Shown: positions 10,961-32,226 of the stretch, piece by piece
How the letters are laid out: the number at the start of each line of letters is the position of its first letter
How positions within the stretch are numbered: position 1 is the first letter of the stretch
Assembly (NCBI GenBank): GCA_937864815.1
Contig: CALMJY010000173.1
Span: 687-64,686 of the forward strand
Length of the DNA stretch: 64,000 bases
From: an uncultured Bacteroidota bacterium
GTDB lineage: Bacteria > Bacteroidota > Bacteroidia > Bacteroidales > VadinHA17
Direction: 5' to 3'
The notes under the pieces: model-generated
What the model was told of the DNA's origin: nothing
What the model saw: only the letters and a program-made list of their open reading frames with translations
Databases searched by the model: none
Program-made: the position numbers and the translations under genes

Positions 10961-10965
10961 ATGAA

Positions 10966-12171: not shown

Positions 12172-12178
12172 TTTTATC

Positions 12179-12862
12179 TTAAAGCATTTTCAGTTTATTG
12201 GTTATATCCGACATTCTCCTGATAATTTCCTTAGCTTGATTCATTATATCAGGATGCTTACTTTTTCCGATCAGTTTTTCCATTTCTTGTAGTGCTGTAT
12301 CAAGCTCAAGGTAAATATCTTTCAATAGTATGCTCTGGTTCTTATCGAATTCCATGATTTTAACGCTTAAATCACTTCCATCTGTTTTTTCCTGTTTGGT
12401 CAGGCTCAGTTTTAACCAGTTATCGATCTTTTTTCCAAGCCATTCATTGATTTTCTCAAGGTTTTCTGTTTTTGACTTAAGATCCAGCTGTGTTTTAACT
12501 CTTGCAAGCAATTCCCTGTTATCAAATGGTTTTGTAACATAATCCTGGGCACCTACCTCAAATCCTTTCAGAATGCTCTCTCTTTCCGATTCGGCAGAAA
12601 GAAATATTACGGGTAGGTTATTCATCTTCTTATCAGAGCGTATTCTTTTACATACTTCAAATCCGTTCATCCCCGGCATGTTTAAATCGAGAAGGATCAG
12701 GTCAAATCTTCTCTTCTTCAGCCATTCAAGAGTCGCTTCACCATTGACAGCGAACTCAATCATGTAATTTTCATCATACAACAGTTTCCCCAGAACCTGC
12801 AGATTATGGGGATTATCATCAACCAGGAGGATCACGGGGCTTACTGGAAGAGATTTATTCAT
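12179..12862 (-). CDS. Response regulator, REC plus a helical C-terminal tail with no recognisable output domain
   Basis: It has LLVDDNP..LDLNMPGMNGF..TKPF followed by ~100 aa predicted helical. Confidence 0.85.
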   Translation of the reverse strand: MNKSLPVSPVILLVDDNPHNLQVLGKLLYDENYMIEFAVNGEATLEWLKKRRFDLILLDLNMPGMNGFEVCKRIRSDKKMNNLPVIFLSAESERESILKGFEVGAQDYVTKPFDNRELLARVKTQLDLKSKTENLEKINEWLGKKIDNWLKLSLTKQEKTDGSDLSVKIMEFDKNQSILLKDIYLELDTALQEMEKLIGKSKHPDIMNQAKEIIRRMSDITNKLKML

Positions 12863-12866
12863 ATAT

Positions 12867-15050
12867 TCATATTGTATTTGTTTCCATATCTTTTATTGAG
12901 TCAACAATAGCAGGGTATTTCCTTATCAGTGTCAGTATTTCTTCAATGTTGAAACTTTCGGCAGCCTGGGTCAGGTCTGTACCGTATCCGGTAATAATTG
13001 AAGTATTGTGTTTCTTCCCAAGTTCAATCAGCCTGTTTCCAAAATCCCTGACTTCGTTAATGGGTTGCACACGTGAAAATGTAGACCAGACTTCTTTAAA
13101 CTGCGTATCGAGTAAATGAATCAACTCCGCCAGGTCAGATATCTCTTCAGAGGTTTTGGTCCTGGGTAAAGATTGCTTCGTTTCAGGTGCTTTAACCGTT
13201 TCATAACGAATATTATTCATAAGTTCGAGGTATAATTCAGTCACCTGTACCGGTTTGATTAACAAGCCTGCAAACTCGCTCTTCCTCATCCGTTCCCGCT
13301 GGGCTTTCATTACAGATGCAGAGTATGCTATGACCGGAATATGCCGTAAACCTTTATTGCTTTTCAGTTTTTCCAGTAAGCCAAAACCGTCAAGAACAGG
13401 CATCCTTATATCAGTGATCACAAGATCAGGTTTATTTTTCTGGACAAGAGAATATGCCTTTTGTCCGTCCTCAGCTTCAATAATTTTTATTCTGGTATTT
13501 TTCAGGGCATCAATAAGGTATTTCCTGTTATGTTCAACATCATCAACCACGACAATCGTAGCTTCATGAAATTTTATTTCCGCGGGATCAAGCTCAATCT
13601 CCTGGGTCCTTTTTTCGAAATCCCTTAAATACGAAACATCAGAGATGCGTACTTTAAAATTACTTCCTTTTTTCAACCGTGAGTCAAGACCTATTGTCCC
13701 GTTCATAAGTTGAATAAGCCTCTGCGTGATCGCCAGCCCGAGTCCTGTGCCACCGTATTTTTTGATACTCTGGTTTTCACCCTGAATAAAGGGATCAAAG
13801 ATCTTATCCTGCACCTCCTGGGAAATACCAATTCCGGTATCAATAACTTCAATGACAAGATCAATATATTCTTCACTTTTTTCTTCAGATAATTTTACCA
13901 TCTGAGGATTTTCAGAATAAACCCTTAACTTGATATAGCCTTTCTCGGTGAACTTCACTGCATTCCCGATAAGATTGAGAATAATTTGCCGCAGCCTGGC
14001 ATCATCAACCAGAATGCCATCCGGAACACCCGATGAGATTTCAAGGATAAATCTTAATCCCTTTTCGGATAATCGTAAAGAAAATATTTGCTCAAATTCC
14101 GAAAAAAATGATCTGGCATTCACATATTCAAACTGCAATTCAAGCTTTCCTGCCTCGATCTTTGACAGGTCAAGAATATCGTTAATCAGGGTAAGCAGGC
14201 TTCGTCCGCTCGATTTTATTGAATCCAGGTAATCTCTCTGGGTTTTATCCTCAACCATGTGACCCAGAAGCTCAGCATATCCCAGTACTGCATTTAAAGG
14301 TGTCCGTATTTCATGGCTCATATTGGCAAGAAACTCACTCTTGGCTTTATTTGCAGCGTCAAGCTGAGCTGTGCGCTCTTTTATTCTCTGTTCAAGCTCG
14401 GCATTGAAAGCACGGATTTGTTCCTCGTCCTTTTTAAGTTCTTTGGTCCTTTCTTCTACCAGATCCTCAAGCTTTTCATTTAATAATCTCAGTTCATCAC
14501 GTGTTTGTATGAGCTCATTATTCTGGTGAACCGCTCCCCGATATATATTCAGCAGGAATTTAATCACCTTCCTGGAGCCGGTTCTTACTGTTCTTTTCTT
14601 TCCGCCATAGTTAATTTCTATATCAGTAAAATCACTTCTGAATTCAGGTACCTCCTTTTCAGCAAGTATCTTTCTTATGATGGAAAGGAGATATTCATCA
14701 TTGAATGGTTTGGTTATGAAACTGTCGGCGCCGCATGAGAGCCCCTCAATAACTTCATCAGGATCAGATAGGGAGGTCAATAAGATTACCGGTATATTTT
14801 CAATACTCTTATCTGATTTTATCCTTTCACAGAGTTCAAATCCATTCATTTGAGGCATGACGATATCCGATATTACCAGTAATGGTTTATTATCGGAAAG
14901 CCAGCTGAGGGCCTGCTGTCCATTCATACATGCTTCGACCTTGTATTGATGATTTTCGAGCAGATATTTTAACCGGGCAGCCTGCGTAGGGCTGTCTTCA
15001 ACGATTAAAATATCGGCGGACTGACCGGGACTTTTTATTTTCTTGCCCAT
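12867..15050 (-). CDS. Hybrid sensor histidine kinase (REC-coiled coil-HisKA-HATPase-REC-helical tail)
   Basis: It has H-box FLANMSHEIRTPLNAV, GGTGLGLAITQ and a second REC (ITDIRMPVLDGF). The N-terminal ~200 aa are paralogous to 8021..10960. Confidence 0.9.
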   Translation of the reverse strand: MGKKIKSPGQSADILIVEDSPTQAARLKYLLENHQYKVEACMNGQQALSWLSDNKPLLVISDIVMPQMNGFELCERIKSDKSIENIPVILLTSLSDPDEVIEGLSCGADSFITKPFNDEYLLSIIRKILAEKEVPEFRSDFTDIEINYGGKKRTVRTGSRKVIKFLLNIYRGAVHQNNELIQTRDELRLLNEKLEDLVEERTKELKKDEEQIRAFNAELEQRIKERTAQLDAANKAKSEFLANMSHEIRTPLNAVLGYAELLGHMVEDKTQRDYLDSIKSSGRSLLTLINDILDLSKIEAGKLELQFEYVNARSFFSEFEQIFSLRLSEKGLRFILEISSGVPDGILVDDARLRQIILNLIGNAVKFTEKGYIKLRVYSENPQMVKLSEEKSEEYIDLVIEVIDTGIGISQEVQDKIFDPFIQGENQSIKKYGGTGLGLAITQRLIQLMNGTIGLDSRLKKGSNFKVRISDVSYLRDFEKRTQEIELDPAEIKFHEATIVVVDDVEHNRKYLIDALKNTRIKIIEAEDGQKAYSLVQKNKPDLVITDIRMPVLDGFGLLEKLKSNKGLRHIPVIAYSASVMKAQRERMRKSEFAGLLIKPVQVTELYLELMNNIRYETVKAPETKQSLPRTKTSEEISDLAELIHLLDTQFKEVWSTFSRVQPINEVRDFGNRLIELGKKHNTSIITGYGTDLTQAAESFNIEEILTLIRKYPAIVDSIKDMETNTI

Positions 15051-15053
15051 GAT

Positions 15054-16100
15054 CTATTTTTTGGAACCTGATTTAATAAGTATCTCAACAATCTTTTCCG
15101 GAGAAAATGCATGGTCGGCAGCGCCAATTTTCAGAGCCTCGCCGGGCATCCCGAATACAACCGAGCTTTCCTCGTTCTGAACAATTGTCAATGCCCCTTT
15201 TTCTTTCATTTCTTTCAGTTCCCCTGCTCCGTCCGTACCCATGCCTGTAAGCAGGATTCCCACGGCATTTGGTCCGAAATTCTGAGCGACAGTGCGGAAA
15301 AGATAGCTGACAGAAGGTCTTAATCCATGTTCAGGCGGGCCACTGGTTAACTTAATTATTTTTCTCCTGTCAATTCCCATTTGATAATTATCCGGAGCAA
15401 TATAACCAATCCCTGCCCGGGCCTCTTCGCCGTCTTCAGCGATTTTCAGCCTGATACCAGAAGTCTTCGACAGCCATTCCTTAAACCCGGTTAAGAAACC
15501 TGCAGTTATATGCTGAACGATAAGAACCGGCACCGGCAGATCAGCCGGCAGCCCTGAAAGAATTATTTCAAGGGCAGTCGGGCCTCCTGTTGAAGCGCCG
15601 ATTGCGATGATCTCAATCCCTGACATCCCGGTCTCAAGTGTCTGTTCGAGACGAAGAGGTTTTGCCTGTTTATTCCGGCCTCTTGGGAAACGTTTTACCA
15701 CTTTTACTTCCGACATCAGCTTGACGGTTTGTATCAGCTCCATACGTAAAGCAGCGAAATCGGGATTTTCAAATCCCGGAGGACAAAGAACAACTGCCAG
15801 GGCGCCGGCTTCAAGAGATTTGAATGTACCCGCCACTTCTTTTGTCGTGGCGCTTCCGCTTACAATAATTACAGGGGTAGGGACAGTCTCCATGATCAAA
15901 CGGGTAGCCTCATAACCGTCTATTCCCGGCATATGTATATCCATGGTGATCACGTCCGGCTTCTTTGTCTTTGCCTGTTCAATTGCCTCAGCGCCGGAAG
16001 CAGCCAGACCCACAACACTGATATCAGGATCGGAAGAAAGAAGGTGAGCAAGGAATTCACGCTGAACCTTTGAGTCATCAACTATAAGAGCTTTGATCAT
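15054..16100 (-). CDS. cheB: Chemotaxis response regulator protein-glutamate methylesterase
   Basis: It has REC (ALIVDDS..MDIHMPGIDGY) plus a CheB esterase domain (GASTGGP, TGMGTDGA). Confidence 0.92.
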   Translation of the reverse strand: MIKALIVDDSKVQREFLAHLLSSDPDISVVGLAASGAEAIEQAKTKKPDVITMDIHMPGIDGYEATRLIMETVPTPVIIVSGSATTKEVAGTFKSLEAGALAVVLCPPGFENPDFAALRMELIQTVKLMSEVKVVKRFPRGRNKQAKPLRLEQTLETGMSGIEIIAIGASTGGPTALEIILSGLPADLPVPVLIVQHITAGFLTGFKEWLSKTSGIRLKIAEDGEEARAGIGYIAPDNYQMGIDRRKIIKLTSGPPEHGLRPSVSYLFRTVAQNFGPNAVGILLTGMGTDGAGELKEMKEKGALTIVQNEESSVVFGMPGEALKIGAADHAFSPEKIVEILIKSGSKK

Positions 16101-16133
16101 AACTTTTTCGTGTCACTTGTTACTTATTATTAC

Positions 16134-16205
16134 GGCGCAATGGCGCAAAGGCGCATGGGCGCAATGGTGTAAATATGCGACTGAGCCGCTGAGCCGTTGT
16201 GCCGT
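16134..16205. repeat. 8-nt microsatellite pair ('solo' bracket): (GGCGCAAN)x4, 16-nt degenerate spacer, (TGAGCCGY/TGTGCCGT)x3
   Basis: It has period-8 tandem units. They are the reverse complement of the two arrays that bracket the four-helix-bundle gene at 23152..23756. It lies between the cheA stop codon (2 nt away) and the cheB start codon. Confidence 0.9.
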
Positions 16206-16207
16206 CT

Positions 16208-18526
16208 TCATATCAACCTCCTAATAATTTCCAACAAATTTGTCTGGTCGAAGCTGCGTTTAACAATATATGCATCGGCACCGACCTCAATTCCCAGTTC
16301 ACGATCCTCGCGAGATTCAAGAGCTGTTACTAGGACAACCGGTATTTCACTTAGTTTCCTGTCGTTCCTTATTTTTGCAGTCAGTTCAAATCCGTTCATC
16401 CTTGGCATATCTACATCAGAAACAATCAGATCGAATCCTTCCATCCGCGCTTTAGTGAAAGCATCGGTCCCATCAATAGCTGTAGATACTTGATATCCTG
16501 CAGTTTCCAGTATGTTCTTCAACAGAGCCCTGGCAGTAACAGAATCCTCAGCAACAAGGATTTTCGCTGATTTTTCAGGAGTAATCCCGGCAGCAACAGG
16601 TCTACTGACCTTTTCTTGTGCACTTATTGATGATTTTATTAAATCGGGGACATATAATACAGGCACGACGTTTCCTGAACCCAGCACTGTGGCCCCTGAA
16701 ATATTCTTAACCCTGGTAAGAAGCTTTCCAAGGTTCTTTACAAGCACCTGCCGTTCATCAAGCACATCATCAACTCTGAATGCAACCACATCATCACCTG
16801 AGGTCAGAACAACTATACAGATCTGATCGGAACTCTTCGATGAAAGCTCTGTAGTTTTATTTCCTGGTTCCTGAAGACCCAGCACATTTCCAAGATCGGC
16901 CATCGGGATTACCTTTTTATCAAAACTGATAGTATCATGATTCTCAACAGTTTTAATCTCTCCGGATTCTGTCCTTAACACCCGAACTACATTAACAGAG
17001 GGAAGAATGAACATATATTCGCCGGTCTTCACAAGAATCCCCCTGAATGTGGCAAGCGTAACAGGAAGAAGTATATGAAAAGAAGTTCCCTTACTTTTTT
17101 CCGTCCTGACACTTACTTTACCATTAAGCTTTTCGACTTTTTCGCTTACTATTGACAGACCCAGGCCGCGGCCCGAGATATCTGTTATAACAGAGCTGGT
17201 CGAAACTCCGGACTTAAAGATCAGGGAAATAATCTCATCACGATTAAGATTTTCTGCAGCTTCGGCTGAAATAACGCCCGATCTGACAGCAGCTTTAAGA
17301 ACATTCTCAGTATCGATACCTTTACCGTCATCCGACAAAACGATTTCAATCATATCGCTTCCCCTGGCTTTGAATTCAAGATTTATTGTGCCAGACGGAG
17401 GCTTGTTTTGTTCTGTCCGTTCATGAGGTTTTCCTATACCATGGTCAAGACTGTTACGTATGAGATGCAGCAAAGGATCTTTAAGATCTTCAAGGATACG
17501 TTTATCGACCTCAAGTTCCATACCGGTAATATTAAATTTTACCTCTTTATTATGTTCATGAGAGATATCCCTGACCATGGAAGGAAAGGATTCAACAAGA
17601 GACGAGACCGGGAGCATGAGAATCTGTTTTACCTCCCCGAGATGGTCATTGGTCAGACGGTTAAAAGTATATTGATCCTTTTCGATTGAATGCTGTAATT
17701 CGTTGAGTCGGTTTTCCATTTCGGACAGACAGTTCCCTGCAAATTCATGATACTCATCATGTATCATTTTAGCTGTTTCCGGCACATCGATGCTGTATTT
17801 TGATAGTTGAGCTTTGAATCCGGTAACTCTGACATTGACGTCTTTCAGTTCATTTAGCCGCTGATCAAAGGATATTTTTGTCTGGAGCAATTCTTCTGAT
17901 TGTAACAGAAGGGGATCGAGTCTTGAAACAGGGATCCGGACCACTTTGGCCATGGCAGGTTCATAGCTTTCAGCTACTCCTGAGACTTTATTTTTTTCTG
18001 TTTCACTGACAATAACTTTTTCTTCAGTTTGCGGCTCGCCACTAAAATCAGGGTACTCTTTTCCGTGGGTGTCTGAAGGAGATTCTTCTGCCGCCTTCTT
18101 TAATTGATTGATTATATCCTTGTGTATTTGCCGCTCTGCAGGTGTTTTCACAATCCCATCTGTTGAGAGCAGCCTGGTTAAAATGTCGATTGCTTTTAAC
18201 AGGATATCGAAGAGCCGGGGAGATAAAACGATATCTTTTCTTTTCAGGGCAGCAAAAAGACTTTCAAACGGGTGGCAGACCGATTCAATTTCTTTCTGAT
18301 CGACAGAACGGGCCGCCCCTTTCAAACTGTGCACTTCGCGATACATATTTTCAATGAGTTCTGCAGCACGTTTTTCCGGCGGTTTCTTTTCCAGCTCAGT
18401 AAGACCTGCCGACAATATGCGCAGATGTTCTTCCGCCTCAATCCTGAAAGTTTCCCTGATCCGTTTTAGAAAATCTTCATCCATTTTATTCATTATATCC
18501 TGTTTAGATTTTGTACTGTTCAACAA
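16208..18526 (-). CDS. cheA: Chemotaxis histidine kinase CheA with a C-terminal receiver (WspE/FrzE-like)
   Basis: It has HPt [10 protein letters not shown], HATPase GRGLGLSIV, a CheW-like domain and a C-terminal REC ([18 protein letters not shown]). The true start is probably Met12 (18493), which would avoid overlap with mcp. Confidence 0.92.
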
Positions 18527-20138
18527 GCTCTTTCAGTTTTTGTCCGAGATCATGCAGATTTTTTACCGATTGTTCAGTTTGTACCATAATTGCTGCAGTC
18601 TCCATGCCGGCCTGGTTAATATTCTGCATTGCAGTTCCGATCTGTTCCATTCCGACCAGTTGCTGCTGGCTTGATGCAGCTATCTGCGTCGAAACCTGGG
18701 CTGCCTCATCGCTCATTTTTGCAAGCGCCCGTATTGCATCCCCGGCCTGTGCAGATTTTTGAACTCCCTCCTCAACTGCCTTATTCCCCTGCTCTGTGGC
18801 AAGAACGGCTTCGCTGGTGGCTTTCTGAATATCATTCAGTATATTCCGGACCTGTGTGGTTGCCTGTTTTGATTGCTCTGCAAGGTTTCTTATTTCCTGC
18901 GCCACAACAGCAAAACCCTTACCATGCTCGCCTGCTTTGGCTGCTTCAATAGCGGCATTGACAGCCAGGAGATTTGACTGATCTGCCAGATCGGTAACAG
19001 AGGCGATAATTTCTCCTATTGACCCGCTTTGTTCACTTAACCTGATAATTGTCTGACCGATCTTGTCCATCTGTTTCCGTATATGATTCATTCCTTCAAT
19101 AGTTTCATTAACACCTTTCTGGCCGTTCACAGATACCTGAGCCACCTGCTTTGTACTGTCAGACAGGGTATTGGCTTTCTGATTTGACAACTGGGCAGCC
19201 TGGCGTACCTCTTCGACGGTTGTGGTAGTCTCGGTAATAGCAGCGGCAGTTTCGGAGGAACCTGATGCAATCTGTGTTGTTGAAGCGAGGATTTCAGATG
19301 AACTGCTTGCAAGAATGTTCACCCCGTCCAGGATATCCTTCATCTGTTCCCTGAGCATCTGTATCATTTGGTTAATTGATTGAATCATTATTCCGAATTC
19401 ATCTTTTCGTTTTGCAAAACCAGAAAGATCCCCGGTGAGATCTTTGGCAGCAATCAGATTAGCCGTCTTCATGCTCACCTGTAAAGGTCTCGTAATACTT
19501 AAGGTCATCAGAATTGAGATAACAACAGTCAATAAGATGGCCGCTAACCCAAGAAATAGCATGATTAAACGTGCATTAGCTGCAGCTTTTTCAGCTTCCC
19601 GGTAACGCATATTACTGCGGTTTTCATTCTGAGTTATAAGATCATCTATATCATTTATCCATTTTTGAACTGCCCTGCTTGCCTTTTCATTCATAAGCAC
19701 TATCGCTTCTTCATATTTATGTGCCATTGCCAGATCGATCACCTGGTTATTCAGTTGTCTCGATGCGACCTGCGATGAATAAGTTTTATTAATAATAACA
19801 AATGACATTGTATCGTCTTTTGCTGTTAATCCTTCAAGTTCCTTAAAGTCCCTGTCATATAAGTTCCTTATAGAATCTATCTTTTGCTTCAGGTCAGATG
19901 TGGTTTTGTCATTTTTTAAAAGCAAAATATTGCGTAAGGCAATAGAGACTTCCCTGGTATGCTCGATCATATTATTTGCCAGCTGCAGACGGACATTATT
20001 TACTTTGATTATTCGATCAAGCTTTGCCTGAGTGACTTTGATCTGATTCGTATTTACAACGATTATAACAATCATAAAAGCCAGGATAAGAGTATAGCCT
20101 AATGCCAGCTTTAATCTGATCTTAAGATTTTTAAACAT
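18504..20138 (-). CDS. Methyl-accepting chemotaxis protein
   Basis: It has two TM segments, a HAMP domain and the conserved signalling hairpin [34 protein letters not shown]. Confidence 0.93.
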
Positions 20139-20211
20139 GGTATTTTCCTCCGTTAAAAATTTGATGGATAATTAAATAAATTATTTAATTTAAATCATTA
20201 TGAACCAGTTT

Positions 20212-20730
20212 CTAAGTTACTTCTTCATGTATAATGATCTTCTTATCATTCAGTATCTTTTCCCCATCCAGAATGATTACATTCCCCGGAGCTATTCCTT
20301 TGAGATAGTCTGAGCCAATACCGGTGACGGAAACAGGAGATGTTCTGATAGCATCAAAAGGAACAGGTTGCATGCCTGTTATATTATCGGCCAGTATACC
20401 AAACTCCATGGCCGGATTATGAAGGATGATTACTTTATTCAATTCACCCAGCCCTTTTTCGGGCAGATTAAAGAATTTCTTCAGATCCACTACCGGCAGT
20501 ATCTGACCCCTGACATTGATTATGCCTAATATAAATGAGGGAACACCGGGTAATTGTGTGAAGTCCCTGAGCGGATAGACTTCCCTGATAAATGCGACAT
20601 CAATACCATATATCTCACCCGCGAGTGCAAATATTAAAAAATCACCTGTGGCAGATGATGTCTGCTCTTCGGGCTCTCTTGCCATTTCCCTGGCCCTGTT
20701 TTTAAGTACAGCAATAATTTCTTTCTTCAT
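20212..20730 (-). CDS. cheW: CheW-like coupling protein
   Basis: It is a single CheW domain (..GIINVRGQILPVVDLKKFF..). Confidence 0.85.
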   Translation of the reverse strand: MKKEIIAVLKNRAREMAREPEEQTSSATGDFLIFALAGEIYGIDVAFIREVYPLRDFTQLPGVPSFILGIINVRGQILPVVDLKKFFNLPEKGLGELNKVIILHNPAMEFGILADNITGMQPVPFDAIRTSPVSVTGIGSDYLKGIAPGNVIILDGEKILNDKKIIIHEEVT

Positions 20731-22145
20731 TATACCTGTTTTACCTGTATGTTACTGTTAATGATTTCCCTTATATGCTTTACCGATAATCCTTCTGATC
20801 CTTCTACGATGTCATTATCTGTGTATTTCATCAGTAAGCCTAAAACATTATCGAAATGTCGTTTTGCCTTCATGATTATTCCCTGCAAAATGAATAAATT
20901 ACCCAACGTAAAGTGTCCCATAATATAATCCGGATCTATATAAACAGCCTGCTTAAGCGATTTGATCGCTTCGTGGTTTTTATTCATATCCTGCAGAATT
21001 GAAGCCCTCAGGAAGTACAGTGAAGGATCAAGCCTGTTTTGTGAAATGGCTTCATCACAGCTATTAAGAGCTTCAGCAAGATACCCTTTGTCGGCAAGCG
21101 ACCTGATGGCAGGTATTCTGTCAGTGCAGGTTTCTGAATGCGGATTACCGTGGATATTATGCGGTTGAAGTGAGTTGAGATCCTCCTTCGCTGAAGCTAT
21201 GGAGGATGAAAGTTGGAGGGAATCAACCGGTTGAGGTTCCTCTTTAAATAAAGCACTTGCTGATAATTGATGATCAGAGTATGATTTTGCAGAATGCTTT
21301 CTGGATTTTCTGTACAGGATTGCACCCGGAAAGTTTACAGGCTCCAGTTCCGGGAATAGTTGTGATGATAACTCGCACGAAGAGACAACCAGCCACCCAT
21401 TCCTGGATAATGATTGAGACAAATTTGCCGCGATTTTAATTGCCGCACCGGGTGTAAAATACATTAAAACGTTTCGGCAGAATATGATATCCGGTTTCCG
21501 GTTGTTGCAGATAGTTGACAGATATTCATCGTGATTAAGGTTGAAACATGAGAAGGTCACCATTTTCTTTATTTCAGGGATTATTTCATACCTGTTATCA
21601 TCGCGATGAATGGAATAAGAAGGTTTCAGCCAGGGAGGCGAATTTCGGAACGACCACGAAGAATATATCCCTGCATCTGCTTTCGTCAGGGCTTTTATAT
21701 TTATATCGGTAGCGACAATATCTACAGTCCATGATTTTATATCATGAATTGTTCTGTGAAGAGCAATAGCGATTGAATAGGGTTCCTCCCCGGTTGAACA
21801 TCCTGCGCTCCATATTCGTAATTTCCTGTCGCCCGGTTTTTTTGATTTAATTAATTCCGGAAATACAAAATCAGTTAATGCTGTAAATACCTGAGGTTCG
21901 CGCCAGAAATATGTTTCGGAAACAGTGAGGTGAGATGCAAGAGTTTCAATCTGATCATGAGTAAAAGAGGCTTTGCCGAGCCATTGAATGAAAGCGGTCA
22001 TATCATTAAATCCGCATTCCCGGGACGCTGAAACCAGGTTCCTCCCAAGGATTTCCCACCTTTCAGTGGGAAAGCTTAATCCGAGCCGCGATGCTATCAC
22101 TCCGCTAACTACTGATAAATCCTCATCTGTCAGCTTACGGTTCAT
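20730..22145 (-). CDS. cheR: CheR-type protein-glutamate O-methyltransferase with C-terminal TPR repeats
   Basis: It has the SAM motif IWSAGCSTGEEPYSIA and a C-terminal TPR-like region. Confidence 0.9.
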   Translation of the reverse strand: MNRKLTDEDLSVVSGVIASRLGLSFPTERWEILGRNLVSASRECGFNDMTAFIQWLGKASFTHDQIETLASHLTVSETYFWREPQVFTALTDFVFPELIKSKKPGDRKLRIWSAGCSTGEEPYSIAIALHRTIHDIKSWTVDIVATDINIKALTKADAGIYSSWSFRNSPPWLKPSYSIHRDDNRYEIIPEIKKMVTFSCFNLNHDEYLSTICNNRKPDIIFCRNVLMYFTPGAAIKIAANLSQSLSRNGWLVVSSCELSSQLFPELEPVNFPGAILYRKSRKHSAKSYSDHQLSASALFKEEPQPVDSLQLSSSIASAKEDLNSLQPHNIHGNPHSETCTDRIPAIRSLADKGYLAEALNSCDEAISQNRLDPSLYFLRASILQDMNKNHEAIKSLKQAVYIDPDYIMGHFTLGNLFILQGIIMKAKRHFDNVLGLLMKYTDNDIVEGSEGLSVKHIREIINSNIQVKQV

Positions 22146-22621
22146 TTCTTTTTTGTTTTCATTGCTTTCTCCAGTAGTTTCTCCTCATCAAGACTAAGAA
22201 ACTTCTCCAGGTTATAAATAAGAATAAGCTCATCATTTATTATTGCCACTCCCTTCATGTTTTTTGCATACGGCAGGATTTTTCCTGCTTCTTTCATCGG
22301 TACTTGTGCAAGATCGTTTACACCTGAAACAGAATCAACAACAATTGCTATCTGCCTTTTTCCCGTATCGGCAATTATTATCTGGTCGTCCAGGCTAATT
22401 TCACGATCGGCAAGAGCAAATCGTTCACGGAGATTAACCACCGGGATTATCTGGCCCTGTACATTGATTATGCCTGAAATGATTTCCGGAGCTTCGGGCA
22501 GGAACCTTATCTCAACTGCATGAATTACCCTTTTTACCGAATGCAGGGGAATTGCATATTTCAGTTCGTCGAGAGTAAAAACAACTATCTGATCTTCAAT
22601 TGTTGGTAGCAGTTCTGCCAT
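22142..22621 (-). CDS. cheW: CheW-like coupling protein (second copy)
   Basis: It has a CheW domain (..GIINVQGQIIPVVNLRERF..) and overlaps cheR by 4 nt. Confidence 0.85.
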   Translation of the reverse strand: MAELLPTIEDQIVVFTLDELKYAIPLHSVKRVIHAVEIRFLPEAPEIISGIINVQGQIIPVVNLRERFALADREISLDDQIIIADTGKRQIAIVVDSVSGVNDLAQVPMKEAGKILPYAKNMKGVAIINDELILIYNLEKFLSLDEEKLLEKAMKTKKK

Positions 22622-22625
22622 ATAG

Positions 22626-22997
22626 TCAGCTTTTATTAATTTCCGACAGTTTATTAATAATATCTTTTATCCTTTCAACCTCCTGGTTCTTATCAAGGAA
22701 GTAATGAGCTCCCAGGTCATAGCACCTTCTTCTATATTGCCAGAATGGGTAATTTGTCAGCATACAAATTGTGGTCTTCAATTTCAATTCGCTGAGTTTC
22801 TCCAATACCTCTATCCCATTCATTTCCGGCATCCGGATATCAATAATTGCAAGATCAGGCTCGTATTCTTTGATACTTCGCAGTGCATCCAAACCGTTTT
22901 CAGCTTCATACACACTTAAATTCTTATCAGTATCTTCTAACAGGCCTTTAATTCTTTCTCTCAACAGAGAGGAATCATCTGCAATTACTATTTTCAT
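22626..22997 (-). CDS. cheY: CheY-like single-domain response regulator
   Basis: It is 123 aa with IVIADDS..IIDIRMPEMNG. It is the first gene of the che operon. Confidence 0.85.
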   Translation of the reverse strand: MKIVIADDSSLLRERIKGLLEDTDKNLSVYEAENGLDALRSIKEYEPDLAIIDIRMPEMNGIEVLEKLSELKLKTTICMLTNYPFWQYRRRCYDLGAHYFLDKNQEVERIKDIINKLSEINKS

Positions 22998-23298: not shown

Positions 23299-23652
23299 AT
23301 GGGAAATTTCCAAAAACTTCGTGTTTGGCAAATAGCCAAAGATCTTGCTGTTAAAATCTACAGGTTAACGCAAAATCAAAAATTTTCAAGGGATCGTGGA
23401 TTTAAAGATCAGATTCAAAGATCCGCAGTCAGTATTCCTTCAAATATTTCTGAGGGTGATGAATTAGAAACTGACAAGCAATCAGTTCGTCATTTCTATA
23501 TTGCTAAAGGATCTGCAGCGGAATTATTGACTCAGATAATTATTGGATATGAAGTCGGTTATATAATTAAAAATGATGCTGATCAACTGATTGAGGAATG
23601 TAAGATCATTTCTGTTATGTTGACAAAACTAATTCGCGCCAGAAGTACCTGA
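23299..23652 (+). CDS. Four-helix-bundle protein ('23S rRNA intervening sequence protein' / Avd-like family)
   Basis: It is 117 aa with GNFQKLRVWQIAKDLAVKIYRLT..FSRDRGFKDQIQRSAVSIPSNISEG, typical of this family. It is the only convincing + strand gene in the first 30 kb. Confidence 0.85.
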   Translation: MGNFQKLRVWQIAKDLAVKIYRLTQNQKFSRDRGFKDQIQRSAVSIPSNISEGDELETDKQSVRHFYIAKGSAAELLTQIIIGYEVGYIIKNDADQLIEECKIISVMLTKLIRARST

Positions 23653-24403: not shown

Positions 24404-27400
24404 TTAAGGTATTGTTATAGTTAAAGTTGTGCCTTTATTCTTTCTGGATGAGATATCTAAATTACCTCCATACTGACGTGCACGTTCACGCATCCCCAGA
24501 ATTCCCAATGATTCAATTGAGTCTGCTTTTTCCTTAGAGATTCCTATACCATTATCTCTAACAGAAAGAATAGTACCTGCATTTGTTTTTTGAAGTTTGA
24601 TGGAAACTGAAGTTGCATTTGCATGGCGCATAACATTTGTAAGCGCTTCCTGCAGAACTCTGAAGAGTACCAGGTTTTTCTTTTCATCATCATACCTGCA
24701 ATCGTCTGCCTGCAGATCACATTTAATACCTGATCTTGTTTCAAAACTGTTAATATACCATTCTATTGCAGGCACTAATCCCAGATCAAAGAGGATTTCC
24801 GGACGTAGTTCTGAAGAGATATGCTGTACATCTTTAATTGTGTTTGAGACCAGCTCAATAATATCATTTAGTCTGGCAACAGCATCAGGCTTGGTACTGA
24901 TTTCTTTCTTCAACCTGTTAAGATCCATTTTCAGGGCTGTCAGCGATTGTCCGAGCTGATCGTGCATTTCGCGTGAAACATAAGTCCTTTCCTCTTCCCG
25001 TATTTCATTCAGGCGCCGGTACAGATCTTCAAGTGACTTCCTTGACCTCAGAATCTCTTCTTCTCCTTTCTTTCGCTCTGTGATGTCCTCTCCCGAACTC
25101 AACGTGGCCACGATTGTGCCGTTCTTATCCTTCAGAACAGTGTTATGCCAGGCAATCAGACGTTCTTCTCCGCGTGCAGTCAGGATCGGGTTCTCAACAT
25201 ATTCTCTAGGTTCTACCTTTCCGGCGAGCAAGTCAGCAAATACATTTTTAATTCTCTCTCTCCCTTTTTCAGGCAAGACAGTATCAAACCAATTCTTACC
25301 GACGAGGTCCGGCTCAGCAAGACCAATAACCTGACACGCTTTCCGATTGACTAACACGATATTTTGATCCGCCCCAATCACTACAATCATCACTCCGGCG
25401 ATGTTAAGGTATTGTTGGGCCAGATTTTTCTCATGTTGCAACGCCTGCTCCGCCTGTTTGCGGTCGGTTATATCATTATAGATGACCTGGTACTGCCTGG
25501 TCCCATCCCAGAGGATCTCCTTCCGCCACACTTGGAGATGGCGTACTTCTCCATTTTTTCTGACAACACTCACTTCATAATCATTTGCACTGAAATCCCC
25601 CTGTTTTCTCAGTTGTTTCCTTTTTTGAGCCTGAATATAGCTTTCAGGTGTATACCGGTCTTTTAAAGGTGAATTCTGCAGTTCTTTAAGATTTTCGTAT
25701 CCGTACAAATCCAGAAGAATCTTATTTGCATAAATTGTTTCACCCTCAAATGAGGCAATTCGTATTCCCAGGGGAGAATCATCGAGAGAATGACGAAAGT
25801 TATCTTTCTCAAGACACGGCGCTTCCTCAGCCCGTTTGCGTTCGGTGATGTCAGTGCAGGTCCCGATCATGCGGAGGGCTTCGCCGCTCTCGCTGTAAAT
25901 CCCTTTGCCTGTCGCATTGATCCAGCGGATTTTGCCATCCGGCATCACCACCCGATATTCGTTGACCAGAACGACGTGCTCATCCAGCGCCTGCATGATG
26001 CGTGCTTCTGCGTGTGCCAAATCTTCGGGATGCAAAACCCGCCGCCACGACTCGAAGGAAGCCGTGTCCTTGTTTTTGTCCAGACCGAACAGAACGAACA
26101 TCATCGTGGTCCAATCGATATGTCCGGAGACGACATTCCAGTCCCAGACGCCCACGCCTGCCGCATCCTGCGCCAGTTCAAGACGCTCGGCAAATCGGTG
26201 CAGCTCTTGCTCCATTCGTTTGCGTTCGGTGATGTCTACGACTGTAGTGATGAAATGTAATGGTTCATTTCTATCATTCCGAATCAATACGGCACTTACA
26301 TCTGCCCAAATATATGAACCATCCTTCTTTATATATCGTTTGTCAAAGCGTGCCGAATTTTCTTCACCTTTTAATAACTTGCCGATAATCAGTTCTGTGT
26401 TTTCAATTTCGTCTGCCGGAGTTAATTCCTGCCATTTTTTGTTTTTTAATTCATCCGCACTATAACCAAGCATTTTACAATATGCATCATTGACATTTAT
26501 TTCACCAGTTGGCAATGTCATTGATTTACCGACATTGGTAGTTTCAAATACCTGTTTAAATTTCCTCTCGCTTTCCATCAGCGCCTTCTGGCTTGCCCGT
26601 TCTTCCGTTTGATCTCTGAACACAAGAACAACACCAATAATTTCATTCTTCTCATCCCGTATCGGTGAACCGCTGTCTGCTATCGGAATTTCCTTTCCAT
26701 CTTTTGAGATAAGCAATGTGTGATTTGCAAACCCTGTAACGTACTCTTCTTTTAAAACCAGTTGAACAGGATTTTCTAACCTCGTCCGTGTGTTTTCATT
26801 GATGATCCGGAACACTTCTTCAAGGGGTTTGTTCTTTGCCTCATGTTCTTTCCAACCGGTTAATTGTTCGGCAACATTATTCATATACTTCACTCTGCCC
26901 TTTTTATCCGTTGCGATAACCGCATCGCCAATGCTGTAGAGTGTTGTGCGATATTCTTCCTGGGTCTGCCAAAGCGTTTTATAGATATTTCTCTGACGGT
27001 AATGATAGACCCACATAATCCCGGTTCCACATAATAACACCAATATTCCGGTCAACAGGGAAGTCAGTATTGCCAACAGATTGAGATTAGAATATATCTC
27101 TTTTTTGTCAACCTTTGCTACCATATACCACGAAGTGCCAGGCACACGACGGATGTCACTCAACACTTCAACACCACGGTAATCCTTACCTTCAAAAACT
27201 CCTTCAAGTCCCATAACCGATTGAACAGCAGGCACATCTTTTTGAGTTAAGGAAATCTTTATGGTCAGGGCAGCGTTGGTATGAAACCGCAAGTCATTCA
27301 GAAACAGGACGCTGTCGCCATTCTTATGGATAAGCAGTGTTTCCGATGTTTTGCTCGGCGTGGGCCAGGATTGAATTAATGGATATAAGTAGCTATATGG

Positions 27401-27967: not shown

Positions 27968-28547
27968 GGTGACCTTCTTTTTATTGCAGTAAAATAAACT
28001 TGAATTTTATTGCGCCTGTTAGCTCAAGATTATGTACCAAATGTGATAATCGATAGAAATGAATGCTTTAATTCAATTTGTTAGTTTGCGTACTTTTAAA
28101 AAATGTTCATGGTCATTTTCATCTTATCAGCTAAAGAGTTTAACACCCGGGATATTCCCGGATAAAGAGGATTCAACAACAAATTCTATGAGCAACGCAT
28201 CTATGCTTTAACAAAATTAAAAAAAATAGCGAATTTTCCTAATTATGAATCACTTGTGTCCTACTAGACCTATGCGAAGACATTTGGCTATAGCTTTTGC
28301 CTGAGGGCTGGATTTAGTATTGGGCATAGGTCAATGTGCCAAATCAGCGGTCGTGGTTTAATGTTTGAGGAGAGCAGAAAACATGTCAGCGTATTGTTAT
28401 TTTGTTAACAGCACTGGTGCAGTCTAGTCCCGGCGAACGGAGTGAGTCGGGAGTCGCGCCGAAGGCCCTGACCGAAGCGAAGCGAGCGTCATGGGGTACA
28501 AGTTTAAGCGGAGCCAGGAATCAGTCAAGGTATAGGATTTAAATTGC

Positions 28548-28656
28548 GGGCAGAGGAGCGTGTCCGGGTGCAAGAACTATTACAAATTTGTCTTGGATGC
28601 AGGAGCTAAAGCAAAAAGTGTGACAAGCAACTTACCCATATTGTCCGTGTTAGCGG
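28548..28656. repeat. Dispersed intergenic repeat, copy C
   Basis: The core is GGGCAGAGGAGCGTGTCCGGGTGCAAG..ACAAATTTGTCTTGGATGCAGGAGCTAAAGCAAAAAGTGTGACAAGC..TTGTCCGTGTTAGCGG. It lies ~15 nt from the stop of 28672..28917. Confidence 0.8.
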
Positions 28657-28671
28657 CCGATTTTTTATTAT

Positions 28672-28917
28672 TCACTTATCAAGCTTTTTCCATTCACCTG
28701 AATTATACCTTCTAATTATTTCTTTTGCTACATCGTTTGAAAATTGTTGAATTCCAGAAGATGATCTTTTCCCTTCCAGCCTGCATTTTGGACATGTAGC
28801 CATTTGAGCGATATTATTATGTTCCATCGGAGATTCACATACAGGACATAACGGCACAACATTTTTAATATTGAATTTTCCTGTTAACAAATCATAATCG
28901 TAGTCCCAAGTCCACAT
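28672..28917 (-). CDS. Hypothetical small Zn-ribbon protein (81 aa)
   Basis: It has two CxxC pairs (CPVC, CPKC). I recognise no family. Confidence 0.5.
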   Translation of the reverse strand: MWTWDYDYDLLTGKFNIKNVVPLCPVCESPMEHNNIAQMATCPKCRLEGKRSSSGIQQFSNDVAKEIIRRYNSGEWKKLDK

Positions 28918-29164
28918 CGAATCGTTAATGCCAAACTTATCAACTCGAAGCTTATATCTGTGCAGAAATATATCAGGGCTACGGCAATTCTTATACGCCG
29001 TTTCTCAATCATGGAGATGGGTTATCCGGGACCCGGCTCAGAGTATAATGACATTTAGTTTAAGACGAAGTTGCAAATATACTACTAATGGGTCAATACA
29101 TCACATTGTTCTTTTTGCCAACGTCAGTATAAATTGAGAATAACACAAATCCGATTTCATAATT

Positions 29165-29198
29165 CTGCACCTTAAGTGAAGTCACACTTAAGGTGCAG
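29165..29198 (-). terminator. Stem-loop downstream of 29230..29610 (putative intrinsic terminator)
   Basis: A 14-bp perfect stem pairs CTGCACCTTAAGTG with CACTTAAGGTGCAG around a 6-nt loop. It lies 32 nt after the stop codon. The U-tract is weak. Confidence 0.5.
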
Positions 29199-29229
29199 AT
29201 TAAAATAAAAGAATCTGGGAAAGTAATAT

Positions 29230-29610
29230 TTATGACTGACTGATTTCAGGTAAGATTTTCCATAACCTGCTTTCCATATTTGTCAGATCAAATGGTTTCT
29301 CAACTATTGCATCAACTCCGCTATTTATCATTTCAACATACAGAGACGGATTTAAAGTGGAGGCTACCATAAGAATCTTCATTGAGCCTGTGCTGTATGA
29401 TGCTTTAATCCTTTTTGCCAGTTCAATACCATTCAAAGAAGGCGTAAGATAATCACAGATCAGGATATCTACATGACCGTTTTTTACAAGAAAATCAGAG
29501 GCAGACTTGCCATCAGTTACTATATGCACCTCAAATGAATTACATAACTGATCAGAAAGCAACAGATTACTGTTTTTATCTTCAGATGCTATTAACACTT
29601 TGCATTTCAT
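29230..29610 (-). CDS. Orphan single-domain response regulator
   Basis: It has a REC fold with ILICDYLTPSLNG and EKPF. Confidence 0.8.
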   Translation of the reverse strand: MKCKVLIASEDKNSNLLLSDQLCNSFEVHIVTDGKSASDFLVKNGHVDILICDYLTPSLNGIELAKRIKASYSTGSMKILMVASTLNPSLYVEMINSGVDAIVEKPFDLTNMESRLWKILPEISQS

Positions 29611-29998
29611 TTTCTTTTGTATTGATTATAATCAATATATGCCAATGATTGTGCCATTCTTGTTATGTAATAGTATGTCAGATAAATACATGGCGATTCT
29701 GATTTTTTATTGATTTGAAATATCTTCGTAAACGAATATAGAATACCCGGAACCGGGCATTTTTAAATAAAAAAGCAGAGAATCGAGCCAGAAGATTCTC
29801 ATTCTAAATAGACTCCCGTATTATGATATTTATGTTCTTCAGAAAACATGGTTTTCGTTTCTTTCCTACTGGTAACTAAAAATTGACCTTTTAATCCTGC
29901 CTGACCAGGAAATCTGCTAATCAACTTTTGGCAAGTATGCTTTTCAGATGCATAAAGTGGTAATGGTCTGATAACAGCCATTTAAATATTTCCTATAA

Positions 29999-30290
29999 AC
30001 GCGTTGTGCGGTTGACAATTAAATAAAAGAGTCTGTAATTGGTCGATAACTATGTTAAAAACTCAAATAAATAATCTAATCTTCTCATATTCTTGCAATT
30101 ACCCCCCTTCCCGGCCTTCCCCCTGCGCCTTCGCGTAGCCGCTTCGGCGGAGCAAGGCAGGGGGGAAGGAGTACTGCATTTCCCCCTGGGGGAAAATGAA
30201 AGGGGGTTTATTTCGAAAAAATACAAAATATGTAACTAAAAGGTTATTGAGCACTAAATGAATATATTAAGATTCAACCGCACAACACGT
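29999..30290. mobile_element. MITE-like non-autonomous element, full copy (292 bp)
   Basis: It has 17-bp TIRs, ACGCGTTGTGCGGTTGA (29999-30015) and TCAACCGCACAACACGT (30274-30290), with 1 mismatch. A 9-bp direct repeat TTCCTATAA sits at 29990-29998 and 30291-30299. There is no ORF. It has an internal GC-rich hairpin at 30115-30169. Confidence 0.85.
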
Positions 30291-30799
30291 TTCCTATAAG
30301 TATTATTATAAATAATATCCTTATACGAAAATCCGGTATCTATTTCTGCTACATAAATCAAACTCCGACAAATGATTTTTTAATCAGTTAACTGGAATCA
30401 TTCCGAATCTATGGTAATAGTTTCATGGTCATTTCCTGAGAGTTTCCTCACAAACTTACTTTACCTCCTATTATGAGCCATATTGGTTTCATTTAACTTT
30501 GGATTGTCTGTTATAACAACTTTTTAATACGGACCTCTAGTTCTAAAGGATTGAAGGGCTTGGTTATATAGTCATCTGCCCCCAGCTTAAGCAAATCAGA
30601 TCTGCAAATACTGCTGTCTAAGCTCGAAAGGATAATGATTGGTATTCTGCCATATTGTTTACTTGCCTTGAATTGTGTTACCAGAACTCTGCCATCAGTA
30701 TCCGGCATCACCAGATCAGTAATAATCACATCAGGGAAAAAACCATCACTTACCTTTCTCATTGCCTGAGCAACGCTCTGAGCTATAACTATTTCAAAG

Positions 30800-32226
30800 C
30801 ACTAGTGTCCGACTAAAATAATAAAAAGAGGGGTACTCCCCAAAGGTTTCCCCCAATGTTGTAATTTGGTTTTACCACAAACTAAACACAACATGGGTAA
30901 AATTACAGAAATAAAATTAGTCGGACAGCCGATCTTCAAACAGATAATGAATTTGGTTGATAAAGTTGACATACAGGGATTGATAAGGAAGCATGAGAGT
31001 GATTATTATTACAAGTCATTCAAAACCCGTACACACCTTTTCACAATGCTGTTCGGGATACTGAGCCGGTGCGATTCGATGACAGAAGTCTGCGAAGGGC
31101 TTCGTGCAATGGGCGGCAAGCTTAATCATCTGGGTATGGACCAGGCACCAGCTAAGAGTACAGCATGCGACGGACTGCGTAACAGAAGCCATAAGTTCTT
31201 TGAGGATCTATATTTTACCCTGGTAAAACATTATCATAGTTTTTTGTCGGACAGCCGGACATTTGGACTGACTTTTAAGGAGGTACTTATTATTGATTCC
31301 ACGACAATCCGGTTATTCAGTGACATATTAAAAGGAGTTGGCCGTAATCCAAAGGGTGACGGCAAGAAAAAAGGAGGAATGAAGGTCCATATGCTTATTG
31401 ATGCAGTTCAATCGGTTGGACGGTTTATCAAAATGACGGCAGCAAAGGTCAATGATCAGAAGTTTTTAAAGAGTCTTGAGTTGATATCCGACAGCATGAT
31501 CGTGTTTGATAAAGCCTATAACTATTACCACCAGTTTGCACTTTGGACACAGAAGCGTGTATATTTTGTCACCCGGATGAAAAAGAATGCTGTCTATACG
31601 ATTATAGAGGTTAAAAGAGAACATTATCGCAAGAGAGGCAAGGCAAAAGTATTAAGAGATGAGATCATCGAGCTGGAGTATCATCCAGAGAAAGAAGACG
31701 GAAAACAAGATCTTAAAACCAAGCTCACAATGAGATTAAGAAAGGTCAGCTATCAGGATGAGCAGAACCGCTACTACGATTTTCTTACAAACAATTTTGA
31801 TATATCAGCAGAAGATGTCGCATTCCTGTATAAGAAAAGATGGGGCATTGAGATACTGTTCAAGAAAATGAAGCAGAACTTTCAGCTGCATTACTTCTAT
31901 GGTGAGAATGAAAATGCAATCTATACCCAGGTCTGGTGTACTTTAATAGCCCAATTGCTATTGACTGTGACACAGAAGATCGCACAGGCGAAAAAAGCTT
32001 TCTCTGTAGTGGCATCGTTGGTTCGGATACACCTGATAAGCATGCTGGATGTAAATGAACTTTTGCGCAGCACAAAAAGAGCTTTTAAGAGTAAATCGAT
32101 ACCCCCTGGGTTACAATTATCCTTTAATTTGCAGGAGGTCAGTTTTTAAATACAAAATATGATACTTGATAATCAGATACATACGAGAATGAATCAAGTA
32201 TCTAAATTATTAATCGGATAACAGTG
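30800..32226 (+). mobile_element. IS4-family insertion sequence (1427 bp)
   Basis: A 9-bp TSD ATTTCAAAG sits at 30791-30799 and 32227-32235. The terminal inverted repeats are imperfect: CACTAGTGTCCGACTAA.. and ..TTAATCGGATAACAGTG. Confidence 0.88.
30893..32149 (+). CDS. IS4-family DDE transposase
   Basis: It starts MGKITEIKLVGQPIFKQIMNLVD..SFKTRTHLFTMLFGILSRCDSMTEVCEGL.. as in IS4-type transposases with an N-terminal DUF4372-like region. The ORF track starts at a TTG (30866); the ATG at 30893 is more plausible. Confidence 0.85.
   Translation: MGKITEIKLVGQPIFKQIMNLVDKVDIQGLIRKHESDYYYKSFKTRTHLFTMLFGILSRCDSMTEVCEGLRAMGGKLNHLGMDQAPAKSTACDGLRNRSHKFFEDLYFTLVKHYHSFLSDSRTFGLTFKEVLIIDSTTIRLFSDILKGVGRNPKGDGKKKGGMKVHMLIDAVQSVGRFIKMTAAKVNDQKFLKSLELISDSMIVFDKAYNYYHQFALWTQKRVYFVTRMKKNAVYTIIEVKREHYRKRGKAKVLRDEIIELEYHPEKEDGKQDLKTKLTMRLRKVSYQDEQNRYYDFLTNNFDISAEDVAFLYKKRWGIEILFKKMKQNFQLHYFYGENENAIYTQVWCTLIAQLLLTVTQKIAQAKKAFSVVASLVRIHLISMLDVNELLRSTKRAFKSKSIPPGLQLSFNLQEVSF

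Follow-up and report, generated by a model that had tools for sequence, protein, structure and literature searches.

Probable sub-genic horizontal transfer of a PAS unit into a Bacteroidales sensor histidine kinase, with homology edges at DIT-coding words

The window, i.e., the whole stretch of 64,000 nucleotides (nt) of contig CALMJY010000173.1 that was analyzed, carries a gene for a sensor histidine kinase with five consecutive PAS units (PAS1 to PAS5), the third of which (25826-26236) was very probably gained by sub-genic horizontal transfer and joined in frame to the resident gene at words that encode the DIT motif, in an array that is polymorphic at these same words. The host of the window belongs to the Bacteroidota and is Bacteroidales-like, its UDP-glucose dehydrogenase being 80-89% identical to those of Bacteroidetes/Bacteroidales metagenome-assembled genomes (MAGs). 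A preliminary description of this DNA had proposed that a PAS unit flanked by two identical 20-nt repeats was acquired from a source with a higher content of guanine plus cytosine (GC) by recombination at the linker, and this proposal is now supported by the composition of the unit, by a close copy of it in an unrelated lineage, and by a second allele of the kinase that does not contain it.

The segment 25853-26236 has 57.0% GC, in comparison with a window mean of 39.3% (standard deviation 4.5%, windows of 384 nt), which places it in the top 0.09%, and the window-wide maximum among the 384-nt windows, 58%, begins at 25808. At the third codon positions (GC3), PAS3 reaches a value of 0.70, against 0.39±0.067 in 1468 windows of 128 codons from 33 open reading frames (ORFs), i.e., z=4.7, and the 128-codon window with the highest GC3 of the whole 64 kb begins exactly at amino acid (aa) 585, the first of PAS3. 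The tract taken to be transferred (25826-26236) has a GC3 of 0.69-0.70, and the other units have values of 0.31 (PAS2) and 0.40 (PAS4), both of which are host-like, or of 0.50 in PAS5, which is slightly raised. The GC3 shift is sharply localized and the deviation is limited to PAS3, as is expected of a transferred sub-genic segment. This sliding-window check of GC and codon usage agrees with the preliminary description, which had estimated ~55-58% GC for the enclosed segment and a low GC for the flanks of the same gene, and had found the composition of this unit to differ from that of the other PAS units.

The copy in another lineage was found through a scan with the PAS3 peptide, which identified, at 85% protein identity, a lake metagenome contig of 67% GC (JGI Ga0233425_10006433, hereafter L131). 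When the unit was compared as DNA, apart from the rest of the gene, window 26236-25826 and L131 2380-2790 were 89.8% identical over 411 ungapped nt (E 7.5e-160), with flanks at random identity, and the edges of this homology are the first base of the 5' DIT word (26236) and a point 7 nt past the 3' word (25826). In windows of 30 nt, the identity is 0.17-0.47 just upstream of the first DIT word and 0.8-1.0 through the unit, and at no more than ~15 nt from the second word it has fallen to ~0.5 or less. Of the borders given in the preliminary description, i.e., the two repeats, the 5' edge is retained, and the 3' edge has to be moved, given that the foreign tract extends ~7-25 nt beyond the 3' copy of the repeat.

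The two copies of the unit are separated by 17 synonymous and 21 non-synonymous codon differences, which correspond to a synonymous divergence (dS) of 0.24 and to a ratio of non-synonymous to synonymous divergence (dN/dS) of 0.31. The dS is comparable with those of 0.18 and 0.08 in the flanks between two Bacteroidales strains (see below) and marks a recent transfer, which would have been directed into the Bacteroidales kinase. PAS3 is 84% identical to the first unit of L131, whereas its identity to the four remaining units of the kinase is 22-25% and that to the units of the alternative allele 24-35%, and the next best match after L131 among all the loci compared is 39%. The kinase encoded next to the unit in L131 has its closest relative, at 54% identity, in a lake Verrucomicrobia MAG, so that the host of L131 is probably a member of the Verrucomicrobiota, a taxon that rests on this one protein match. 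L131 provides, then, a close homologue of PAS3 in an unrelated lineage, at low dS and between unrelated flanks.

The host of L131 also looks like a recipient, since the tract that contains the unit is compositionally atypical there, the unit and the PAS unit that follows it forming a tract of ~56-61% GC in a background of 65-80% GC. The gene concerned (in the region L131 2200-3150) encodes two PAS units in 309 aa and is preceded by a stop codon and by only the last strand of another PAS (GKTIKTYGVNQDITERRR), and a DruA/DUF4338-like ORF (1217-2170) is located upstream on the opposite strand. Judged by this layout, the PAS gene of L131 looks like an imported, 5'-truncated fragment, and the source of PAS3 itself would have had ~57-60% GC.

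The alternative allele was recognized in the closest homologue of the kinase in the protein collection, a protein of 1311 aa (P0050) encoded on an ENA contig (L010) and present twice more in the JGI data. The two alleles align closely on both sides of the central array, within which PAS3 to PAS5 face four other PAS units (Table 1), and these four units have 53% GC overall, one of them with a GC3 of 0.75-0.91. At the 5' junction, the identity between the window and L010 continues through GTCGTAGACATCACCGAACGCAA and the divergence begins at the next base, and at the 3' junction the identity resumes at GACAT.ACAGAGCGAAAG, both breakpoints being located inside DITERK codons. The two strains, which are roughly 92-95% identical and occur in the same lakes, have in common the periplasmic sensor, the first two PAS units, the kinase core, and the response regulator (95% identical in L010), and PAS3 is absent from this close orthologue, the one other allele known. 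PAS3-PAS5 (25088-26219) is thus a block that is exchangeable between strains, and the event described in the preliminary account is part of a larger exchange, in which the whole array is swapped. The effect of such an exchange would presumably be to alter the cytoplasmic inputs or the relay of the signal, with the periplasmic input and the output being kept.

Both alleles are found in independent assemblies, the window allele being recorded in NCBI, JGI, Logan, and ENA on at least four contigs, and the other allele in ENA and twice in JGI. In the Logan contigs of the lake-water runs X1 and X5, the L010-type allele has a depth of ~40-54, with loose ends that match L010 exactly, and X1 also has a 168-nt Logan contig that is identical to the window over 25702-25869 (0 mismatches). 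As both alleles were seen in X1, they co-occur in at least one sample. Further alleles were sought with aa 1-583 of the kinase, and this search returned only more distant relatives, with 58-66% identity. Other joints in the contigs placed on the gene, such as one running from 25852 to 26217 (a skip of 364) and one going back 765, were traced to unrelated GC-rich genes that match in the 20-35 nt of a DIT word only, and were disregarded because a skip of 384 nt would be expected if the unit had been lost precisely. A loose end at 26219 that begins with ACGCGCACC is probably from another gene, not from a third allele.

It could be supposed that PAS3 is a long-resident native module, whose richness in GC would follow from constraints that this type of PAS domain sets on amino acids or codons, the repeat being due to the conservation of DITERKR only. 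The 20-mer is indeed a generic spelling of the motif, and PAS5 and parts of other genes are also somewhat raised in GC, but a GC3 of 0.70 cannot arise from amino-acid composition, and the other PAS units of this same gene have values of 0.31-0.50. The unit is also missing from the orthologous allele, and vertical descent cannot be reconciled with a dS of 0.24 between PAS3 and its copy in an organism of another phylum that has 67% GC. A native origin is highly unlikely on these grounds.

The repeat itself has to be interpreted with care. The 20-mer (CGTTTGCGTTCGGTGATGTC) is present in exactly two copies in the window (Table 1), as the preliminary description had stated and an exact search reproduced, and no further copies were found in the window at up to 3 mismatches. 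The offset between the copies is 384 nt, or 128 codons, and both are read in the same frame of the minus-strand ORF as GAC ATC ACC GAA CGC AAA CG, which encodes the DITERKR that had been noted in both places. They are two of four related words that encode DIT(E/D)RK, one per PAS unit, with spacings of 387, 378, and 384 nt. PAS2 to PAS5 end in DIT(E/D)RK and PAS1 ends in the variant DQTEER, and the DIT words make up ~4% of the kinase gene. No such repeat arose in 100 shuffles, an excess over chance that holds for the random-sequence model only.

On a broader scale, a scan of one genome per species showed that at least 120 unrelated bacteria and archaea have the exact 20-mer, and all of the occurrences among the matches listed (121/121) are in frame as DITERKR within an uninterrupted coding sequence, with a mean GC of the loci of 57% and none, again among the matches listed, below 41%. 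In the 40 contexts that were viewed, the 20-mer stands where a PAS domain would end, and is often followed by a charged, helix-like linker. The DIT words are near-identical as DNA in many PAS genes (GACATCACCGA.CGCAA..), and the motif is spelled GACATCACCG..CGCA in all the GC-rich units. The 20-mer is an ordinary mid- or high-GC spelling of a very conserved motif, and two identical copies are to be expected wherever two such units stand in tandem. A contig of a Thalassospiraceae MAG (L073) has two exact copies, at 736-755 and 1117-1136, which are 381 nt, i.e., one PAS unit, apart. Because the word is ubiquitous, the identity of its two copies in the kinase is not itself a recombination scar, and it is the homology edges, rather than this identity, that provide the evidence for the joints. 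The earlier view that the joints are still visible can be kept in this modified form, with the edges at the DIT words, and not the repeat, as the joints.

Direct repeats that are exactly one unit apart might also be read as the borders of an internal tandem duplication of a neighboring PAS unit. However, PAS3 is only 22-25% identical to every other unit of the protein, with no nucleotide similarity to them beyond the DIT words, and the duplication is refuted by this matrix of unit identities, which leaves it a practically negligible probability.

Five homology edges were located, of which the comparison of the window with L010 and that with L131 gave two each and the comparison of two further loci gave one. 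All of them are a few nt from a DIT word, two being in the same 5' word, and the edges need not be independent events, so that no probability is attached to this count. The further loci, which were picked for containing the 20-mer, are contigs of a Tepidisphaeraceae (Planctomycetota) MAG (L020) and of a Sulfuricella (Betaproteobacteria) MAG (L053), which have in common a PAS-coding stretch of at least 554 nt that is 83% identical (L020 2220-2773 and L053 1-554), a match whose 5' extent is bounded by the end of the locus. Their identity drops to ~0.3 just after the DITERKR word, at which point each continues into a different HisKA domain. Another break at a linker, the third, is seen in two more distant proteins of 966 aa (P0062 and P0070), in which the head (aa 1-465, sensor and PAS1) is 69% identical to that of the kinase and the PAS2 region 25%. 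The close homology stops right after the DQTEER linker of PAS1, and a different PAS2 is fused straight to HisKA, HATPase, and REC domains, i.e., to another kinase class.

The position of the crossovers can be narrowed down from these alignments. The 17 nt at 26220-26236 are common to the host-type allele and the window, and 15 of the 17 are found in the foreign copy, and the 5' crossover is placed in this interval because it is shared by all three. The 3' crossover would lie between 25826 and ~25815, which gives a hybrid linker in which DITERKRAEEA is followed by PCLEKDNFRHSL. The linker from PAS3 to PAS4 contains an unusual Pro-Cys (AEEAPCLEK), and its second half is similar to the N-cap that PAS4-type units have in MAGs of Syntrophus and Smithella.

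Based on these positions, PAS3 would have been inserted, or would have replaced something, through recombination inside the DITERK-coding words, guided by their microhomology rather than resulting from random breaks followed by selection. As the motif and its frame are the same in every DIT word, a crossover between two of them would leave the reading frame intact and every PAS core attached to its own linker helix. In the proposed order of events, the microhomology-guided recombination would come first, and selection would then keep the in-frame, fold-preserving products. It is possible, although somewhat doubtful, that DIT(E)RK-coding words are general in-frame recombination sites, at which PAS units or whole arrays are exchanged across phyla and kept as alleles in populations.

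The existence of two alternative arrays at one locus in co-occurring strains, with breakpoints at the same short conserved words, might also result from programmed intragenomic cassette switching, i.e., gene conversion from silent PAS cassettes, as in antigenic variation. A gene of the PF05635 family (23S rRNA intervening-sequence protein, an Avd-like four-helix bundle) is also located nearby, between the response regulator and the chemotaxis genes (117 aa, 23299-23652, plus strand). Nevertheless, no second copy of either array is present in the 64-kb window and the ORFs scanned include none for a reverse transcriptase, an invertase, or a recombinase, so that within these limits there is no sign of a diversity-generating retroelement, a shufflon, or silent cassettes. 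The two strains, in addition, differ by 5-8% throughout, and are therefore not switch variants of one clone, and the composition of the unit is foreign, with a 90% match in another phylum. Switching of this kind is very improbable. There is no sign of a reverse transcriptase close to the PF05635 gene, and a gene of this family is likewise called at the matching position of L010, though blastn shows no DNA similarity there.

An artifact of assembly would be another explanation, in which the assembler jumped into the PAS gene of a GC-rich organism and back again at the shared 20-mer. The window contig is a MEGAHIT k141 metagenome contig, many unrelated contigs from the same lakes match the DIT word region at 25819-25852 (depth ~150), and an insertion bounded by a shared word has the look of a mis-join in the assembly graph. 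However, the identical 1187-aa protein was obtained from four sources (NCBI, JGI/IMG, Logan, and ENA), on at least four contigs and with different assemblers, and the shared word, with its 20 nt, is far below k=141 and below the k=31 of Logan. A k=31 Logan contig of run X1 crosses the 3' joint with 0 mismatches, and the nearest foreign copy is 90% identical, not 100%. A chimera is extremely unlikely on this evidence.

Several points nevertheless weigh against a transfer of PAS3 guided by the DIT words. At the level of the reads, the support for the joints consists of the one 168-nt Logan contig, which covers the 3' joint only. A run search with the cassette and both joints matched X1 and X4 only, with this single contig placed at 98% likeness, and a separate search with the interior of the unit matched none of the runs covered. 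No copy of the unit with more than 90% identity, and with it no donor lineage, was found in the metagenome, genome, viral, and plasmid collections, with no copy at all in viral contigs or plasmids, and the best copy, which is 90% identical, is itself atypical in L131 (59% vs 67% GC). An allele with PAS4-PAS5 but without PAS3 was not found among the alleles recovered, and the insertion of a single unit is indistinguishable from the replacement of several units followed by differential amelioration. The breakpoints at domain borders could also reflect selection for functional proteins, rather than a preference of recombination, and the pair formed by L020 and L053 is subject to ascertainment, given how its loci were picked. 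As for the searches for donors, a protein search with PAS3 alone returned short proteins only (<=254 aa, <=51% identity) and missed even the window protein, and is therefore uninformative on donors, and the closest single unit is not resolvable by an exhaustive HMMER search with the unit, because this ranks proteins by a score summed over many PAS repeats.

That PAS and other sensor domains are shuffled within families of histidine kinases, with some of the PAS domains apparently derived from distant sources, has been documented (Alm, Huang & Arkin 2006, PMC1630713), and the kinase described here is similar to these in that N-terminal sensing modules are rearranged or replaced and the kinase core is kept. 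In that study, the shuffling was inferred from the domain architectures of paralogues and the mechanism was stated to be unclear (PMC1630713, section 20), whereas here the edges at the DNA level, the 90% copy in another phylum, and the two alleles in one population are seen directly. On the other hand, a survey of sub-genic lateral transfer came to the conclusion that regions coding for domains are not favored as units of transfer (Chan, Darling, Beiko & Ragan 2009, PMC2639706). The present case is similar in that a fragment smaller than a gene was moved between lineages and recombined into a resident gene, and differs in that the piece corresponds to exactly one PAS unit and its linker and has motif-coding words at its borders. 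The DIT motif closes the PAS core on its C-terminal side, at the start of the linker helix, and has a role in structure and signalling (BvgS, PMC4810494; LOV receptors, PMC9098866), and it is this known motif that the 20-mer repeat encodes.

In the papers found by a literature search that did not cover all journals, DIT-coding DNA was not described as a recombination site or joint. The swapping of modules between species at conserved linkers, which yields in-frame mosaics, is familiar from the modules of non-ribosomal peptide synthetases and polyketide synthases, and from the mosaic genes of penicillin-binding proteins. These are other protein families, and the shared stretch in the kinase is just ~17-27 nt. 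The locus is a new and unusually well-resolved instance of mosaic genes and of domain shuffling by sub-genic transfer.

Few signalling proteins of bacteria are as variable as the multi-PAS kinases, and the shuffling of their sensors is known, with its mechanism having been left open (PMC1630713). The locus provides a case resolved to the nucleotide, in which the DNA of one PAS unit is 90% identical in a Bacteroidales organism with 39% GC and in another organism with 67% GC, with edges at the motif words, and in which a polymorphism at the level of the population swaps the whole central array at the same words. If this were general, a conserved structural motif would double as a recombination signal that ensures an in-frame, fold-preserving exchange of modules, which might guide the engineering of chimeric sensors. 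If true, it would provide a concrete molecular mechanism for the long-noted and unexplained shuffling of sensor domains.

The kinase consists of a dCache-like periplasmic domain and a predicted membrane span (aa 1-336), the five PAS units (aa 337-465, 466-584, 585-712, 713-838, and 839-967), a HisKA_3 domain (aa 993-1057, 46 bits vs a cutoff of 24), and a HATPase_c domain (aa 1101-1187, 56 bits). The Pfam matches are PAS_3 (1.6e-53 for the whole protein), PAS_9, PAS, PAS_4, HisKA_3 (6e-12), and HATPase_c (7e-15), with a weak match of the N-terminal region to dCache_1, and the membrane span was read off a hydrophobic stretch near aa 296-320, with no predictor used. The presence of both HisKA_3 and HATPase_c corresponds to a sensor kinase of the HisKA_3 (NarX/LiaS) type. 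PAS3 is an intact PAS_3-type domain, as the best stretch (aa 617-703) of the PAS_3 match, which exceeds the gathering score, covers positions 2-88 of the 89 of the model (PF08447), its C-terminal DIT motif is followed by a helical linker (CTDITERKRAEEA, aa 704-716), and the nearest solved PAS is 3mr0 (E 6e-18). The gene of the response regulator lies 16 nt downstream of the kinase gene, the adjacent position of a two-component regulator, and the two products would together form a two-component system.

Table 1. Features of the kinase locus in the window and alignment of the locus with contig L010
Feature	Position in window	Strand	Basis or remark
Sensor histidine kinase gene, 1187 aa	24404-27967	minus	ORF list and Pfam
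PAS1 (aa 337-465), variant linker RDQTEER at end	26573-26959	minus	Pfam, alignments of relatives
5' copy of 20-mer, DITERKR closing PAS2 (aa 578-584)	26217-26236	minus	exact match
Probable transferred unit: DIT word, linker helix, PAS_3-type core (PAS3), DIT word, 7 nt	25826-26236	minus	L131 alignment
3' copy of 20-mer, DITERKR closing PAS3 (aa 706-712)	25833-25852	minus	exact match
DITDRK codons closing PAS4 (aa 832-837)	25457-25474	minus	spelled GATATAACCGACCGCAAA, partly host-style (GAT ATA)
DITERK codons closing PAS5 (aa 961-966), 3' breakpoint of allelic replacement	25070-25087	minus	L010 alignment
Central PAS array PAS3-PAS5, 1132 nt	25088-26219	minus	exchanged for 1504 nt in L010 allele
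Cognate NarL/FixJ-type response regulator, REC and GerE helix-turn-helix	23758-24387	minus	Response_reg and GerE (Pfam)
Aligned with L010 2987-4748, 91.9% identity	27981-26220		blastn
Facing L010 4749-6252 (1504 nt; four other PAS units), no similarity detected	26219-25088 (1132 nt; PAS3-PAS5)		blastn
Aligned with L010 6253-7580, 95.0% identity	25087-23760		blastn

Upstream of the kinase gene, the synteny with L010 ends after ~400 nt, the segment 28204-28362 being just 78% identical. Past this point (28204-32149), the window has small response-regulator genes (29230-29610 and 30511-30762) and an IS4-like DDE transposase with DUF4372 (30866-32149), in the place of which L010 has DUF2062 and short-chain dehydrogenase genes. 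On the other side, the kinase locus adjoins a chemotaxis-type cluster (12867-22997, all on the minus strand) that encodes a CheY-like REC protein, CheW, CheR-TPR, a methyl-accepting chemotaxis protein (MCP), CheA-CheW-REC, and CheB, and beyond it are further hybrid kinases and a REC-SpoIIE phosphatase (8021-15050).

Elsewhere in the window, no tRNA genes that could mark an island are present, and the 798-aa ORF at 49180-51576 (minus strand), in a polysaccharide biosynthesis cluster (~38-53 kb), has no Pfam match at E<=1e-5. The first 7000 nt form a low-GC stretch (28-36%) with an insertion sequence (DDE_Tnp_1_3, 185-1090), a PLD-like/NgoFVII-type nuclease-like ORF (1233-2318), a DUF1848 ORF (2665-3636), and an ABC-2 transporter, and may be a separate mobile or defence-related island. 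Finally, other GC-rich spots, unrelated to PAS and with a much smaller deviation (GC3 <=0.55), are found in a CheB gene, at the end of an MCP gene, and in a GFO/IDH/MocA-type oxidoreductase gene (59022-60611, minus strand), which has the second-highest GC in the window, with 48.7% overall, a GC3 of up to 0.55, and 384-nt windows of up to 55%.

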